Source: Escherichia phage 310Ecol104PP
Direction: 5' to 3' (one strand)
Sequence record: OR062946.1
Length of the DNA stretch: 64,000 nt
Shown: positions 1,712-62,080 of the stretch, one piece after another
Numbering within the stretch: the stretch's first letter is position 1
Layout: each line of letters begins with the position of its first letter
Program-made: the position numbers and the translations under genes
Notes under the pieces: generated by a model
What the model was told of the DNA's origin: nothing
The model's input: the letters and a program-made list of their open reading frames with translations, nothing else
Database searches by the model: none

Positions 1712-1741
1712 ACTATAACACAACACGAGGGACTTGTAAAC
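1712..1741 (-). promoter_or_regulatory. T4-type early promoter (minus strand: GTTTAC -35, TATAGT -10)
   Basis: Reverse complement reads GTTTAC, spacer of about 18, TATAGT; near-identical copy at 17013-17042. Confidence 0.5.
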
Positions 1742-3798
1742 TACATCTTGAACTTTTTAGACATTCCGTTGATGTTAATCAAAGAAGCCAAGATTTGAGA
1801 AACTTCGTTTTCCTCTTCTTTTGATTCTTCTACAAGGAATTGATTAAATCCAGCCATTGGACGAACTTCACCAGTTTCCATTAAATGGTCGCCATCATAT
1901 ACTGATTCTTCTAATTGTTCAGAAGGAGGAACGATTGTACCTTCGATTAGATACTTGTTATAAGCAGTTTCTTTCATAAAGTACGTACTTACTTTATTAA
2001 TCTTCAGTAAAATTCCACGCGGTAGAATAACTTCAGCTTCTGATGGAAATCCTGATAAATGACCTGGAACGATAACTTTGATTCGCTCAGCTCCTTTAAT
2101 TACCATACCCACGCTAGTTTCAGCATCTTCAATGGCATATGTAGAATGACTACCCATATGCATTAAATCTTCTGCATCAACGGAACCTTCTCCTTCGCCA
2201 GAAAATACTGCGCCGGAATCATCTAGAGCCATATAGTTTTTACCATGCTCACCGAAGATATTTGGTTTAAGTGATGTCGATACGAAGTTCTTGAAATAGA
2301 ACATTTTGTTTTCAATGTTATGACGCAAAGTTTTAAAGGTAACTTCTTGTCCACGGTAAAGTGTAGTTCCTGGAGGAAGAACTGATCCTTTGGCAAAGGC
2401 AGAATCCAACGTCTCGATGTGCTTAATAGCTCGTTCCATATATTCTTCACGGGTAGAATCTGGTTTACCCAAAAGGAACGAGTTCATTTCAACATATGAA
2501 TCTGCACAATAATCTTCAATTACATCAGATTCAGCTTGGGTTAATCCTTTTGGAGTTACTTCGGTGCTTGCGTATTCATATGCCTGGGCAGCAGATTCAT
2601 TAATCAATTTATAAATGCCATTCATGACAAATTGAATAATAGCTGTCTTTTCATCTGGCGTAGCTTTAGAACCTTTAACTAAATCATTAATAATTTTCTT
2701 AATAACATCAAAGCTATTAGAAATATTAATGTCAGCAAGATCGCTTAAAATTTTATCAGTTTTATAATCAAAGAATTCTTTATTCTTTAAATATTCTTGA
2801 GAACCTTGATATGTTATATCGCTCTGCAACTTGATAGATGGATCACGTAAACGTGCATGGGCTAATGCAATATGATTTCGGAAGTTTTCTAGTTCGTAAT
2901 CGCTAGATTTAAAACGAGAAGCACTTCTCATACCACCAATAGCTCCTTTGCTGAAGTTTGAACCAATCTGAATAACGCCAGAGTTCATTGGTCCTTCTGC
3001 TTTATACACCGGAACTTTAGATTCAAACTCTTGATATTTCTTAGCAGCGAAGCTATCACCATGAAGTGAAGCATCGACAGTAGAATATTGAGCTTGTGCT
3101 GCTAATCGACGACTAATTTTAGTTTTCTGAATAACAGCTTGATCAGTGCGCTTATCATTTTCTAAAGCAATAGAAGCAGCAACAGCGACAGCTTTAGGAA
3201 CAGCATTACCTGTTTTAACGTCTACATAAACATCACCAACCTTTGATTCAACTTTTGTGAATAACTCAGTTGAAATAGGAGGTACACCTGGAATGTCTTC
3301 TAAATTGGCATTTTTACGGTAAACCATAATATATGCATATTTCTTATCATAGTCCCAGATTTCCTTTAAGAGAACATATCGACCTGCTCCTTTAGTACGT
3401 ACTAAACGGTCAGCAATAACTTGCATTTGACGAGCTGCGCCATTTGTTTTACTCTTTAGTACGCGGAATAGGCATGCGTCGATTTTATACTGTTTCATTG
3501 TTTGAAGAGCAGTATCAAAAACAGCATTAATGACGCCAATTGGATTTCCACCCAAGTTTCTAAGCTTAACCAGCGATAATTTCTCGTTGACACCTATCAT
3601 TACGATATGCATCATTTTATCGCCCGGCTTAACGTTTTTATTTGTATCACCGCCAGAGGTGTATGTACAAAATCTAAATCCAGGAAGCACGCTTTCTTCA
3701 CCGGCTTGAATAGCAAAAATTTGAGGTATTTTATGCTTAGGATTTAAGTTAACAACCGGCGCCGAAGCGCCGTCAAATAATTCTGTAATAAGTTCCAT
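1741..3798 (-). CDS. alt: Alt-family ADP-ribosyltransferase (paralog A)
   Basis: 685 aa; N-terminus MELITELFD...; ART signature YRGQ...STSL...EAEVILP in C-terminal third; T4 Alt is 682 aa at this map position. Confidence 0.8.
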   Translation of the reverse strand: MELITELFDGASAPVVNLNPKHKIPQIFAIQAGEESVLPGFRFCTYTSGGDTNKNVKPGDKMMHIVMIGVNEKLSLVKLRNLGGNPIGVINAVFDTALQTMKQYKIDACLFRVLKSKTNGAARQMQVIADRLVRTKGAGRYVLLKEIWDYDKKYAYIMVYRKNANLEDIPGVPPISTELFTKVESKVGDVYVDVKTGNAVPKAVAVAASIALENDKRTDQAVIQKTKISRRLAAQAQYSTVDASLHGDSFAAKKYQEFESKVPVYKAEGPMNSGVIQIGSNFSKGAIGGMRSASRFKSSDYELENFRNHIALAHARLRDPSIKLQSDITYQGSQEYLKNKEFFDYKTDKILSDLADINISNSFDVIKKIINDLVKGSKATPDEKTAIIQFVMNGIYKLINESAAQAYEYASTEVTPKGLTQAESDVIEDYCADSYVEMNSFLLGKPDSTREEYMERAIKHIETLDSAFAKGSVLPPGTTLYRGQEVTFKTLRHNIENKMFYFKNFVSTSLKPNIFGEHGKNYMALDDSGAVFSGEGEGSVDAEDLMHMGSHSTYAIEDAETSVGMVIKGAERIKVIVPGHLSGFPSEAEVILPRGILLKINKVSTYFMKETAYNKYLIEGTIVPPSEQLEESVYDGDHLMETGEVRPMAGFNQFLVEESKEEENEVSQILASLININGMSKKFKM

Positions 3799-3801
3799 GA
3801 T

Positions 3802-5898
3802 TTATCCTTGAACGAACTTGTAAGGCATGTTTGTAATATCTATGCAAGACGCAATAATTCCAAGAGATGATTCTACTTTCTGTTTAATATTTGATGAAAC
3901 AAATGATGCAAAGTCAACTCTGTCTTCTATTTCAATATCACCTGTCATTGCAACTACTTCGCCGGTTTCCATTAAATGGTCTCCGTCATAGATTACCGAT
4001 TCAGTGAGTTCTTCTGTGGTCATAACTTCAGCTTGAATGAGTTTTGTATTATTAGACGTGGTTCCGTCATTATTAGAAGCATCAGTTATTTTATTAACTT
4101 TAACCATCAATCCGCGCGGTAGAATAACTTCAGCTTCTGTTGCTATTCCGAGACTTCCTGGATATACAACATTAACTTTATGAGCTCCATCAATTGCCCA
4201 TCCTATTTGAACTTTAACGTATTCAGGATTTTCTTTATACGCTCTTATTTCGTTTGGATTAATAGTTATTCCTTCTTCATTTTTATCAACCGTTAATTCG
4301 TTACGAGCTTCTGGTTCTAAAAGACCAATACCAGCATGTGTAATTCCAAAACGCCCAAAAATGATAGGAGTTAAAGAAGTAGATACAAAATTTCTGAAAT
4401 AGAACACTTTATTTTTAACTAGTGCTTCGTATATAGGAGCAGTCATACTTTGAGCACGATAAACTGTGATGCCTTCCGGTATGCGGTCACCATTTTCAAA
4501 AGCTGAATCTAAGTTATTTATAGCAGATTCAATTTCTTTTTCACTCATTACATCATATCGTTCTGGATTGTAACGACCTAAAAGAAGATTATTAATGTCA
4601 GTATATCCTGAACCACAATACTCTCTAATGCCGCGCTTTTGTGATGGAGTATATTTAGAACCATCACGGGCAATAGTAATATCAATCATTGGACCTGCAC
4701 CAATTCCAGAAAAACTATAAATCATTCTTTTGAGGAATTTAGTTTTTGCTGCGTTCCAGGAATTTTTAGTCATTTCTTCCCAGACTTCATCTGGCTGCCC
4801 TTTACGAGTTTTATTATGTTTATCAAGCCAATTATCTTTATATTCTTCAAAGAGTTGATTAACAGCTGCTGCGTATTTCTCTAAACATTTTATTGAAGTA
4901 GTTGGTTCATTTTTAATCGCATTAAGAATTACATCTTTAATTTTTTCAGAAACTTCATTAACCTCACTTTTTGAAAAGAATTTATAGTCATAATGAAGTT
5001 CATTCGCAGTTCCTTCGGCAATAATTTTTGCTGCCTTAGTTTTAGAAGCTAATGAATTAATTCCAAGCTTCATTTCTTCTGCTTCGGGAATTAAAGGAGC
5101 GGTAGCAGGTTTATTGAAATTAGCTGCGGTAGATTCATACTTCTGGAATAATTCACTTTCAAATCTAGAAGATTCCAATGATTGACTTTGCGCAATTGCT
5201 CTACGGGAAATTTTAACTTTAACGATTACAGCTTGGTCAGAACGTTTATCATTTTCTTGTGCAATAGATGCTGCAATTGCCTCATTTTTAGTTACTTGAG
5301 CTCCAGTATCTTTATTGATATAAACATCGCCGACTTTCGATTCAACTTTAGTAAAGAGCTCGGTACTAATTTCCGGAACTCCTGGAATGTCTTCTAGTGA
5401 TACATTTTTGCGATGTATAAGAATATATGCATACTTTTTATCATAATCCCAGAGTTCCTTAAGAAGGACGTATCTGCCACCTGAACGACTACGGATAAGT
5501 CTATCAGCAATAACTTGAATTTGTCGAGCTTGACCAGCGGTTTTAGACTTAAGAATACGAAGCATACAAGCATCAATTTTATACTGACGCATTGTTTGCA
5601 TTGCAACAGTAAAAACTGAATTGATATAATTAATTGGGCTTGGACCGAGACCTTTTAATTTAGCAATTGAACCTTTGGCAGTTAATGTAAAAGGAACAAT
5701 ATGCATCATTTTATCGCCCATCTTTAAATCGCGATTAGTATCACCTCCAGATGTATAGGTGCATAAACGAAAGCCTGGTTGTTCAATTGCATCATCAACA
5801 CGAACTGAAAAAATTTGCGGTATTTTCTTCTTTGGATTTAAGTTTGTAATCGGAAGAGTAGTATCTTCGTCAAATAATTCTGTAATAAGTTCCATCAT
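3802..5898 (-). CDS. Alt-family ADP-ribosyltransferase (paralog B)
   Basis: 698 aa; shares about 230 aa N-terminal region and the YRAQ...STSL...EAEVILP motifs with paralog A but has a diverged central region; late promoter TATAAATA about 20 nt upstream. Confidence 0.8.
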   Translation of the reverse strand: MMELITELFDEDTTLPITNLNPKKKIPQIFSVRVDDAIEQPGFRLCTYTSGGDTNRDLKMGDKMMHIVPFTLTAKGSIAKLKGLGPSPINYINSVFTVAMQTMRQYKIDACMLRILKSKTAGQARQIQVIADRLIRSRSGGRYVLLKELWDYDKKYAYILIHRKNVSLEDIPGVPEISTELFTKVESKVGDVYINKDTGAQVTKNEAIAASIAQENDKRSDQAVIVKVKISRRAIAQSQSLESSRFESELFQKYESTAANFNKPATAPLIPEAEEMKLGINSLASKTKAAKIIAEGTANELHYDYKFFSKSEVNEVSEKIKDVILNAIKNEPTTSIKCLEKYAAAVNQLFEEYKDNWLDKHNKTRKGQPDEVWEEMTKNSWNAAKTKFLKRMIYSFSGIGAGPMIDITIARDGSKYTPSQKRGIREYCGSGYTDINNLLLGRYNPERYDVMSEKEIESAINNLDSAFENGDRIPEGITVYRAQSMTAPIYEALVKNKVFYFRNFVSTSLTPIIFGRFGITHAGIGLLEPEARNELTVDKNEEGITINPNEIRAYKENPEYVKVQIGWAIDGAHKVNVVYPGSLGIATEAEVILPRGLMVKVNKITDASNNDGTTSNNTKLIQAEVMTTEELTESVIYDGDHLMETGEVVAMTGDIEIEDRVDFASFVSSNIKQKVESSLGIIASCIDITNMPYKFVQG

Positions 5899-7596: not shown

Positions 7597-7862
7597 TGTT
7601 CATCCTTTAGAGTTTGGTTTACAGCTCTATTATAAATCAATTCATCATTAAGCTCAGTCAAAGACCTATGGTACGTGGTTCTAACTTTATTTCCTTGCAT
7701 CCAGTGTTTGACGTAAATGAAACCTTGCTCTACACATTTTTTAAAAATTCGTTCGTCTTTTTGAGCTCGGAATTCTGGATTGCATCTAAAAAATTGATTT
7801 ACGTGACCGTAATCACGTGTAGTATTACCTTCATTTTCATAAATAGTGTGAACGACAAACAT
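7593..7862 (-). CDS. hypothetical protein, 89 aa (T4 30.x region)
   Basis: ORF with ATGA-type overlap to gene 30. Confidence 0.5.
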   Translation of the reverse strand: MFVVHTIYENEGNTTRDYGHVNQFFRCNPEFRAQKDERIFKKCVEQGFIYVKHWMQGNKVRTTYHRSLTELNDELIYNRAVNQTLKDEQ

Positions 7863-8725
7863 TAGAATGCTCCTTGGAAAATATTATCACCACTAGTAAA
7901 TCTATTAAAATACCCTGCATCACCAGGCTTAGTATAACTCCACGTATGGAATGGATTCATATGATACGGGTGTGTATAATATGGATTATATGGATGTGTA
8001 TAATATGGATTATACGGATTAAATCCAGGAGTTCTCCAGGTAGTGTTCCAACGAAAAGAATCGTTTTTAACCATCTTCTCAATTACATCTTTTATAGCTT
8101 TTTCACTATCAAAACTTTCTTTATTTTCCTTCGGTGAAAAAAGCTTATTTTCTACATCATTCCATGTATAAACTCGCTGAGCGGTTTTTGGAATATTGTC
8201 ACGCTCTCCTCGCGCCATCCAATAAACAGGAACATTTAATATTTCACTCGCATGATCGCAGTGGTGAGCGAGATCGTCAATATAACAAATTACGTTATAT
8301 TTCTCTTTTGCCTTTTTGAACAACTCTTCTTTTGAAGAATCATGACCACACATCATTACTTCTGAGAAGGCACCAGGAAAAAGAGCATTCAAATTAAATT
8401 GACGATTCAACAGAGCGTCAATAGAATCACCCAACGCTGTAACAGCTACAAAATTATAATCTTCTTTTAATTTGTTAATTACGCACAGGGCGTCTTTATA
8501 TGGAGACAAATAACGAATAAAATCTGAACGATTGTATTTTTCAATTAACTTGACGCCAAGTTCTTCATCACAATTAAAGAGTTTACCCGGAGAAATAAAT
8601 TTCTCATCTTGAATCATTTTTAAAATATGTTCTAACGGAAGATTATATTTCTGAGCAAAATAAGGAAGGCCTGATTGCCAGCTTAAACATACTCCATCAA
8701 TATCAGTTAAAATAGTAGGCTTCAT
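7862..8725 (-). CDS. HAD-superfamily phosphatase-like protein with Tyr/Pro-rich C-terminal repeat
   Basis: N-terminal ILTDIDGV (DxDG motif I) and later YIDD motif; C-terminus NPYNPYYTHPYNPYYTHPY encoded by a tandem 24 bp repeat. Confidence 0.6.
   Translation of the reverse strand: MKPTILTDIDGVCLSWQSGLPYFAQKYNLPLEHILKMIQDEKFISPGKLFNCDEELGVKLIEKYNRSDFIRYLSPYKDALCVINKLKEDYNFVAVTALGDSIDALLNRQFNLNALFPGAFSEVMMCGHDSSKEELFKKAKEKYNVICYIDDLAHHCDHASEILNVPVYWMARGERDNIPKTAQRVYTWNDVENKLFSPKENKESFDSEKAIKDVIEKMVKNDSFRWNTTWRTPGFNPYNPYYTHPYNPYYTHPYHMNPFHTWSYTKPGDAGYFNRFTSGDNIFQGAF
7972..8019. repeat. 2 x 24 bp tandem direct repeat inside the HAD-like ORF
   Basis: gtgtataatatggattatatggat / gtgtataatatggattatacggat, one mismatch. 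Confidence 0.85.
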
Positions 8726-9186
8726 AGAGAGTCTCTTAATAGATTTAACACATCAATAAATTCAGCTTCGGTTAGTATTGTATCATCTTTTGTTAGACCA
8801 CTAGCCATGCTGTGCTTCAAAACTTTTCCTTTCGAGGCTTGTAATGCATCGCGAAAGCCCTTGTTTTGGAACGCTGCTTCAAAATATGCATTTGTGTATA
8901 ATTCTTTCCATGCTTCGGAATATCTTGAAAACGGAGTTCCAAGCCAGAACAACGTGCCACGGTCCTGAGCTCTAGCATAAGCTCGTCCAGCTTGTTGGGC
9001 GGCAAGCCCGGATAACCCAAATATACGACGCTGTTGTTCAACATTTTTCACCTTGCATCCTTGGAGGAATCCTTCGAGACCTCCAAATTGAATACCATCC
9101 ATAACGAAAGGCCATTGGGCGAAATTACTTAATGCGCATGATGGCCATCTAAAATTGCTTCTTATCTCTAGCTCAGACATTTTCAA
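8722..9186 (-). CDS. NADAR (YbiA-like, DUF1768) domain protein
   Basis: 154 aa; LSNFAQWPFVMDGIQF...EGFLQGCK resembles the FSNF..WP...DG...EHYFQAQK core of YbiA/NADAR proteins. Confidence 0.6.
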   Translation of the reverse strand: MKMSELEIRSNFRWPSCALSNFAQWPFVMDGIQFGGLEGFLQGCKVKNVEQQRRIFGLSGLAAQQAGRAYARAQDRGTLFWLGTPFSRYSEAWKELYTNAYFEAAFQNKGFRDALQASKGKVLKHSMASGLTKDDTILTEAEFIDVLNLLRDSL

Positions 9187-9379
9187 TACTTATAATTTCA
9201 ACATCAGCCCAATGACCATAGCAAGGAAGACGAAATTCAACTGGCCAGTTAGGGTCCTTTTCTAATATAATAGACTGAACTTGTGGCTCTTCATATTCAT
9301 CGGTATACGGACCTTTATACGTTACTTTATATGTGACCTTAATGTACTGAATTCCAAAAATCTTATTAATTATATTCAT
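9173..9379 (-). CDS. hypothetical protein, 68 aa
   Basis: ORF in tightly packed minus-strand operon. Confidence 0.45.
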   Translation of the reverse strand: MNIINKIFGIQYIKVTYKVTYKGPYTDEYEEPQVQSIILEKDPNWPVEFRLPCYGHWADVEIISIENV

Positions 9380-60831: not shown

Positions 60832-61434
60832 TTATAGATTAAATCCTTCAAAATCAAGAGTATAGATAGTGTATGTTGAATACTTTTTATACTCGTATCT
60901 ATCCGCAATTCTAAATACACTTCCAGCTGGTATCATTACTTCCTGTTCATCTGAAACTAATTCCATATTACGATAACGATGGCTATCCGGAAATTTAAAA
61001 CTCGGACTATATTCTTTACAACGTAGAGCTTTTATAGCATACTCCTGAAAATTAAATACCATAGGAGCTTTAAATTCAAAAATAACTTGTGTGTTGTATT
61101 CTAATCCAGAAGCAAAATGTAGAGCTATATTTTTATCATATGAAGCTGATACTACTTTATCAAATGTAATAATATCAATTCCTTGATTTAACACCTGCTT
61201 AGTCTCAACTGGAACACCTCTCCAAAGAGGTTTATCGTTTGGTTCCAAACGAGATTTGATTATTTCATTTAACCAAGAATGATCGTCTGGCTTATTAGTA
61301 ATACAATGAATTAAAAGTTCAATTTCAGATAAATTAAATCCTTCAGAAAGTAATTCTTCACGAATAGAAGCACGCACCGATGCATCCATTGATTTGATTT
61401 TAAAATCTTTTAATTGCATTGCTGAATATTTCAT
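60832..61434 (-). CDS. modA: ADP-ribosyltransferase ModA
   Basis: 200 aa, same length as T4 ModA; R...S-x-S...E-x-E layout (LWRG, SAS, EQEV). Confidence 0.85.
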   Translation of the reverse strand: MKYSAMQLKDFKIKSMDASVRASIREELLSEGFNLSEIELLIHCITNKPDDHSWLNEIIKSRLEPNDKPLWRGVPVETKQVLNQGIDIITFDKVVSASYDKNIALHFASGLEYNTQVIFEFKAPMVFNFQEYAIKALRCKEYSPSFKFPDSHRYRNMELVSDEQEVMIPAGSVFRIADRYEYKKYSTYTIYTLDFEGFNL

Positions 61435-62054
61435 TCAACTACCTCAATATCATACACTTTAAATGTTCCAAATGAATCGTGTAATTTTTCTTTTGAAATA
61501 GAAGTTATTTTATACTTTCCAATTGGAATCATCCATTCTTGTTCATGTACAATCATCATTAAGTTATCAGTACGTTCTGAATCTAATCCATCAGTATCTT
61601 CATATGTATACTTAAACTCAGTATTAGGAGAAGAAAGTATAATATCGCTGATATGGTCAGAGTAATTAAAAGCTTTATCAGTTTTTAAGCGAAGTACTAT
61701 TTCAGTGAAATATTCAGCATAAGAAAAAGAACACGCTGTATGCAAACTAGTAGTAAATGAATCTACTCTGTTCGTTGAAAACACTTCTCCAACTTGTAAA
61801 TCTTTAATGAGTTCTTTTGTCGATTTTGATATACCACGATATAACTGATAAGGTGATTCAGTTAAATGCTTTTTAATGATTTTATTCAACTGCCGATGAA
61901 GAGCTTCATTCTTTTTGGCTTCCATACATTGCCAAAGAACTGACTGTTCAAAGTCAGTAAATTTTTCACAGACCTTTTTATACATATCATATTGAAAATC
62001 GACACTTTCAGCTTTTATAGATAACTGTTCAACATCTGCAGGATTAATAATCAT
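61431..62054 (-). CDS. modB: ADP-ribosyltransferase ModB
   Basis: Start at Met 5 with GGAGG RBS gives 207 aa as in T4 ModB; tandem with modA. Confidence 0.8.
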   Translation of the reverse strand: MIINPADVEQLSIKAESVDFQYDMYKKVCEKFTDFEQSVLWQCMEAKKNEALHRQLNKIIKKHLTESPYQLYRGISKSTKELIKDLQVGEVFSTNRVDSFTTSLHTACSFSYAEYFTEIVLRLKTDKAFNYSDHISDIILSSPNTEFKYTYEDTDGLDSERTDNLMMIVHEQEWMIPIGKYKITSISKEKLHDSFGTFKVYDIEVVE

Positions 62055-62080
62055 GATAGCCTCCATATACTTCAGAAGCT

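Follow-up and report, generated by a model that had tools for sequence, protein, structure and literature searches.

The locus raises the question of whether a small phage protein removes ADP-ribose from DNA and, if so, against which host toxin it would act. A sequence-only reading of the window (the whole 64,000-nucleotide stretch of Escherichia phage 310Ecol104PP analyzed here, sequence record OR062946.1) had assigned a 154-aa open reading frame (ORF) to the YbiA/NADAR family by its conserved core. It had further proposed that the product, encoded alongside four ADP-ribosyltransferases, could protect phage DNA from DarT-type toxins.

Gene model and orthology with T4 gene 30.3

The ORF at 8722-9186 is present and represents a real gene, although its annotated start yields a slightly shorter product than the reading had assumed. 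In the mechanical ORF list, the minus-strand frame 8722..9186 opens with a TTG, the earliest start available, and runs for 154 aa. An ATG at 9180, six bases past this TTG, gives a protein of 152 aa (459 nt) and is the start used for 30.3 in the T4, T6, and VR5 annotations. Translation from the TTG at 9186 was considered and rejected because annotated orthologs all use ATG 9180, with the stop/start coupling typical of such genes, and the gene is taken to be 8722..9180 on the minus strand (Table 1). Judging from the sequence across the two extra codons and the adfN start (...GTATTGAAAATGTCTGA), TTG AAA is probably not translated. On the upstream side, gene 30.4 ends in a stop codon that shares bases with the adfN ATG (ATGTCTGA; in context, …GAAAATGTCTGA…), and the adfN stop codon overlaps the start codon of gene 30.2 (ATGA). 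Gene order in the window follows that of T4: two alt genes, alt.1, DNA ligase (30), 30.1, 30.2, 30.3, 30.4 … rIII, 31.

Table 1. Positions of adfN, its functional elements, its neighbors, and the ADP-ribosyltransferase genes in the window
Feature	Position	Strand	Remarks
adfN (T4 gene 30.3 ortholog), predicted phage-type NADAR DNA ADP-ribosylglycohydrolase	8722..9180	-	152 aa + stop codon
Two extra codons, TTG AAA, from the mechanical ORF call	9181..9186	-	Within the 3' end of gene 30.4
Glu36 codon (GAA), catalytic Glu of the E-x-F-x-Q-x-x-K NADAR motif	9073..9075	-	Invariant in 70 homologs
Lys43 codon (AAG), ADP-ribose-contacting lysine	9052..9054	-	At least 90% conserved (70 homologs)
His123 codon (CAC), last beta-strand	8812..8814	-	Invariant in 70 homologs
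C-terminal alpha-helix, residues 138-151	8728..8769	-	Predicted at high confidence in the model; full length, no frameshift
Nested ORF, ATG start = T4 gene 30.3'	8817-9044	-	75 aa; +1 frame inside adfN
Gene 30.4 ortholog, upstream neighbor	9173..9379	-	68 aa; ORF list, sequence, T4 annotation; phrog_2042
Gene 30.2 ortholog, downstream neighbor	7862..8725	-	287 aa; 90% identity to T4 gp30.2
Alt ADP-ribosyltransferase, protein-modifying, virion-packaged	3802..5898	-	PF03496 E 1.3e-37; 70% identity to T4 Alt
Second full-length Alt paralog	1741..3798	-	685 aa; PF03496 E 6.1e-20; 41% identity to T4 Alt
ModA ADP-ribosyltransferase	60832..61434	-	194/200 identical to T4 ModA (97%)
ModB ADP-ribosyltransferase	61431..62066	-	199/207 identical to T4 ModB (96%); T4-equivalent start 4 codons in

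The encoded protein aligned with T4 gp30.3 (NP_049816.1) over its full length and without gaps, with 147 of 152 residues identical (97%), and it was 100% identical to its counterpart in phage KFS-EC3. The five substitutions relative to T4 (A67 for S, T82 for V, E89 for P, F104 for I, and M125 for I) all fall on variable columns of an alignment of 70 homologs, none of them at an invariant position. At the nucleotide level, a 2.1-kb stretch was 97-99% identical to many sequenced Tequatroviruses (98.9% is the value quoted). The protein matched the Pfam family PF08010, "Phage_30_3" (Bacteriophage protein GP30.3), across model positions 1-138 of 138, with an E value of 1.5e-68 and 229.3 bits against a cut-off of 36. 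Using tblastn, homologs were detected in 1510 phage records, which include phages of Escherichia, Klebsiella, Aeromonas, Acinetobacter, and Vibrio and other members of the T4 superfamily. Together, the Pfam match, the identity to T4 gp30.3, and the homologs in these records rule out a chance ORF. In many T-even records the tblastn alignment ended at residue 144; the apparent variant C terminus is an alignment or filter artifact, and translation of the T6 gene gave an identical C terminus. All sequence-level defining features of the phage NADAR/gp30.3/AdfN-T4 family (PF08010) are present. The ORF is almost certainly adfN (T4 gene 30.3) of a Tequatrovirus, lying within the early-gene block.

Labels attached to this gene in public databases vary. 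Some records call the adfN ortholog "prohead core protein" (T6 RefSeq, L004:1501-1959; PV390659, vB_EcoM_P8), and nearby small early genes are labeled "terminase large subunit" or "head vertex protein" in some records. These labels are evidently propagated annotation errors. The value of the present analysis lies in annotation: the gene should be labeled adfN, or anti-DarT factor NADAR, and not "hypothetical protein" or "prohead core protein."

NADAR fold, remote homology, and catalytic residues

The SNF...WP...DG...E.F.Q..K core noted earlier extends from S18 to K43. Numbered from the ATG, its elements are S18-N19-F20, W23-P24, D28-G29, and E36-G-F38-L-Q40-G-C-K43, and both E36 and K43 aligned with the motif Glu and Lys of YbiA, in the profile search of the PDB as well as with hhalign. 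A third residue, H123, sits at the end of a strand spanning residues 120-122/123 in the AlphaFold2 model. All three residues are found in eight phage genera, including those of Acinetobacter phage Acj61 and Aeromonas phage avDM5. Phage NADARs carry a His at the subfamily-defining Glu/Asp position, as described by Schuller et al. in 2023 (PMC11543638), and replacement of the YbiA-type Glu or DarG1-type Asp by His defines the phage NADAR (gp30.3) subfamily (PMC11125620, PMC11543638).

Family membership had been expected to show as a direct match to the Pfam NADAR model, PF08719, and this expectation was not borne out for the window protein alone: no match was obtained even at E ≤ 10, and PF08010 was its sole Pfam match. 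Because Pfam splits the phage clade off into a separate model, PF08010, the missing match does not reflect failed homology. Among the 70 family members, 27 matched PF08719 at E ≤ 1, the best of them with an E value of 1.5e-7; the best-scoring member (P0078) reached 32.3 bits, just below the gathering cut-off of 35.1. The wider relationship was recovered with a profile built from the same 70 full-length homologs (alignment A1), which is also the source of the conservation figures given here. Searched against the PDB, this profile found E. coli YbiA (2b3w) across the motif at an E value of 0.0056, and comparison with E. coli K-12 YbiA by hhalign gave a probability of 93.3% and an E value of 2.7e-7 over 90 columns. 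In contrast, a single-sequence phmmer search of the PDB returned no match, and YbiA was reached only by the 70-sequence profile. PHROGs and NCBIfam give no function for gp30.3, and NCBIfam holds no model for gp30.3, gp30.2, gp30.4, ModA, ModB, or Alt. Several family members have been named "YbiA (DUF1768 family)" by JGI.

The AlphaFold2 model was of high quality (pLDDT 93.8, pTM 0.89) and showed the helical core flanked by two small beta-hairpins that marks the YbiA fold. The link to NADAR is a distant one that has to be established at the level of the family or the structure, but it is nevertheless well supported. On the basis of fold, remote homology, and catalytic motif, the window protein belongs to the NADAR superfamily, though it fails PF08719 itself, and the assignment to YbiA/NADAR made in the sequence-only reading stands.

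A predicted role in resistance to DarTG1

The activity of this protein family has been established for the T4 ortholog. NADARs hydrolyze the guanine-N2-ADP-ribose made by DarT1 (Schuller et al. 2023, PMC11543638), and purified T4 gp30.3 strips ADP-ribose from guanosine, not thymidine, in DNA in vitro (Toxins 2024, PMC11125620). Johannesman et al. (Nat Commun 2025, PMC11825919) traced the ability of T-even phages to resist DarTG1 to gene 30.3, renamed it adfN, and found it both necessary and sufficient for this resistance. In the same study, T4 or T2 lacking adfN formed no plaques on DarTG1 hosts, pure AdfN de-ADP-ribosylated DarT1-modified DNA, and T4 AdfN variants E36A, K43A, and a C-terminal truncation were impaired. 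Ectopic adfN rescued RB69; a frameshift in that phage's own allele removes the last 15 residues, and with them the C-terminal helix, and the allele is inactive. An interaction between AdfN and DarT1 was not seen in a two-hybrid assay, and AdfN gave no protection against DarTG2 (PMC11825919). A T4 transposon screen likewise lost 30.3/adfN insertions specifically on DarTG1 hosts (bioRxiv 10.1101/2025.11.20.689424). The anti-DarT function is therefore already known from the T4 ortholog, and the finding is not new: the discovery was made, its mechanism dissected, and the result independently replicated between 2023 and 2025.

Applied to the phage studied here, these observations suggest the following course of events. 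On infection, the host DarT1 toxin would ADP-ribosylate guanine N2 in phage DNA and block replication. AdfN would then release ADP-ribose from guanine by cleaving the N-glycosidic bond that joins them and so restore replicable DNA, and the expected outcome is phage growth on DarTG1-carrying hosts. The enzyme is predicted to be a minimal, single-domain NADAR-fold hydrolase that acts on the modification and does so without binding the toxin; its substrate would be guanine-ADPr, not the thymine-ADPr made by DarT2. The proposed protection of phage DNA from DarT-type toxins thus has to be narrowed: it applies to DarT1, which modifies guanine and for which protection has been shown with the T4 protein, and not to DarT2, which modifies thymine. 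T-even phages are indifferent to DarTG1 because they carry an orphan, antitoxin-like enzyme for the repair of ADP-ribosylated phage DNA.

From its full length, its intact helix 138-151, and the location of the five T4 differences at non-conserved positions, we infer with high confidence that the window allele shares the activity of T4 AdfN. If so, the intact allele predicts that the phage is resistant to DarTG1. RB69 carries a frameshifted, non-functional gene, and the databases contain truncated or fused gp30.3 fragments (P0008, P0015, P0017, and P0055). The window allele could in principle be such a remnant, or its resemblance to NADAR proteins could be due to chance, for which the missing direct PF08719 match might be cited. 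The sequence contradicts both readings, since the protein is a full-length 152 aa, retains all catalytic residues and, unlike the RB69 allele, the helix at residues 138-151, and is 97% identical to an active enzyme; we regard their probability as practically nil. The aberrant gp30.3 products of T4-like phages (P0008, P0015, P0017, P0055, and P0016) are either truncated to 86-109 aa or fused to portions of neighboring families (PF11097, PF06019, PF06919). If these are real and not gene-calling artifacts, they may be inactive like that of RB69 and would mark DarTG1-sensitive phages.

Could the protein act mainly on small soluble substrates instead of DNA, such as ADP-ribose-derived immune signals, RNA-repair by-products, or the riboflavin-pathway intermediates handled by YbiA-type enzymes? 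We consider this highly improbable: in vitro, T4 gp30.3 acts on DNA directly and takes ADP-ribose off guanine, loss of the protein causes a specific DarTG1 phenotype that depends on the catalytic residues, and the phage subfamily bears a His where the YbiA-defining Glu stands. The phage NADAR may still have a small-molecule activity in addition.

The ADP-ribosyltransferases named in the sequence-only reading are all encoded in the window, comprising two Alt paralogs that match PF03496 as well as close orthologs of T4 ModA and ModB (Table 1). The second Alt paralog (1741-3798) occupies the site at which T4 has the decayed duplication remnants alt.-1 and alt.-2. With all four enzymes present, the NADAR might be tied to the phage's own transferases, for example by erasing off-target guanine ADP-ribosylation in phage nucleic acid. 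Alt shares its broad R-S-E clade with the guanine-specific DNA ADP-ribosyltransferases pierisin and ScARP, which lends this idea some plausibility. In addition, NADARs of T4-like phages are expressed early together with ADP-ribosyltransferases (Iyer et al. 2022, PMC9503650). Against it, T4 without adfN grows normally on DarTG1-free hosts, which indicates that, under standard conditions, no self-inflicted damage has to be repaired. The annotated targets of T4 Alt, ModA, and ModB are proteins (RNA polymerase, S1, and EF-Tu), and homologs of 30.3 occur in other contexts, such as the tRNA cluster of Aeromonas phage avDM5. The physical arrangement offers no help to this explanation either: although the NADAR and the transferases do share a genome, as had been claimed, they do not form an operon. 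The Alt genes lie ~3-7 kb from adfN, beyond the ligase gene, and ModA and ModB are ~52 kb away. Given these distances and the unrelated neighborhoods of distant 30.3 homologs, operon-style linkage was rejected. The association of NADAR and transferases is co-occurrence only, and it has already been published. A role in undoing the phage's own ADP-ribosylation is extremely improbable, and protection against host DarT1 remains the preferred reading.

One aspect of that reading calls for refinement. T4 gp30.3 fails to rescue E. coli from DarT1 in vivo (PMC11125620); T4 AdfN rescues non-T-even phages only weakly, and uninfected E. coli with DarT1 is not rescued (PMC11825919, PMC11125620). The T4-type protein is fully active only in T-even infection, suggesting a phage-encoded potentiating factor (PMC11825919). 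Because uninfected cells are not rescued and non-T-even phages are rescued weakly, the evidence suggests that the picture of a free-standing eraser is incomplete and that AdfN depends on some factor or context supplied by T-even phages. Conceivable sources of such a factor are the genes whose translation is coupled to that of adfN; if gp30.2 or gp30.4 filled this role, it might act on ADP-ribose after its release or bring AdfN to DNA under replication. We consider it very unlikely that one of these two is the factor. The N terminus of gp30.2 carries a DxDGV motif, which is suggestive of a HAD-like phosphatase; the protein had no Pfam or NCBIfam match. The phrog_2042 family, to which gp30.4 belongs, carries no functional assignment. 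Gene 30.2 lies next to 30.3, or within two small genes of it, in T4, T6, VR5, RB16, and Acj61, and no 30.2 was found near the 30.3 homolog of avDM5, which lies inside the tRNA cluster.

A third candidate lies inside adfN itself. The nested gene 30.3' is annotated in T4 as "internal translation in a different reading frame." In the window, T4, T6, and Dhakavirus VR5, this frame runs for 76 codons without a stop, as against only 38-67 codons in RB16, Acj61, avDM5, and PKO111. The 30.3' product is unlikely to be the potentiating factor because plasmid-borne adfN includes 30.3' and yet fails in uninfected cells.

Several further features of this neighborhood were observed. The genes around 30.3 vary among phages of the T4 superfamily (RB16, L006; Acj61, L007; avDM5, L008): the stretch containing 30.3, 30.2, and the ligase gene is interrupted by one or two small ORFs and, in RB16, by a homing endonuclease. 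The gp30.2 protein has a divergent tail and a C-terminal Pro/Tyr-rich tandem repeat (NPYNPYYTHPYNPYYTHPY; about 7961-8020), which contains one unit more than that of T4 gp30.2 (287 aa versus 278 aa). One GenBank record names gp30.2 a 5'-3' deoxyribonucleotidase.

Comparison with other ADP-ribose erasers

The closest known system is T4 AdfN, which has the same length, the same neighbors (30.4 upstream and 30.2 downstream), and the same overlapping start and stop codons as the window gene. E36, K43, H123, and the C-terminal helix are common to both proteins. The two phages differ in that T4 retains only remnants of the alt duplication, whereas the window phage carries a second full-length Alt paralog.

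Another related system is DarG1, the NADAR antitoxin of DarTG1 (for example, Geobacter lovleyi NADAR, PDB 8bat; E. coli C7 NADAR), with which the phage protein shares ~13% identity. DarG1 has an N-terminal extension, whereas the phage protein has none, its domain beginning at residue ~3 in the model, and the catalytic Asp in the last strand of DarG1 is replaced by His123. The gene for DarG1 adjoins darT1; in contrast, phage adfN is an orphan flanked by 30.4 and 30.2. Unlike DarG1, phage AdfN cannot serve as an antitoxin in uninfected cells. In its mode of action the phage protein resembles DarG1, yet it falls outside the DarG1 (BC4488) subfamily.

E. coli YbiA (PDB 2b3w; PF08719) is ~21% identical to the phage protein and has a Glu in the last strand in place of the phage His. 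It is the product of a housekeeping gene of the LexA regulon that has been tied to swarming and to riboflavin metabolism, and YbiA does not protect against DarT1 in vivo (PMC11125620). With His123 in all 70 homologs, the phage protein does not belong to the YbiA subfamily of riboflavin-intermediate N-glycosidases.

Other phages have arrived at the same defense. AdfN-Bas32 and AdfN-Bas60, NADARs of T5-like phages and Vequintavirinae, likewise counter DarTG1 by de-ADP-ribosylation of guanine; they belong to other NADAR clades, were independently acquired and, unlike T4-type AdfN, function without the context of T-even infection (PMC11825919). The T4 tk region, which encodes AdfM (tk.4), is expected to lie outside the window. 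AdfM follows the same strategy as AdfN, being an orphan, antitoxin-like eraser of DNA ADP-ribosylation (bioRxiv 10.1101/2025.11.20.689424), but AdfM and DarG2 are macrodomains, with an unrelated fold, and act on the thymine-ADPr made by DarT2.
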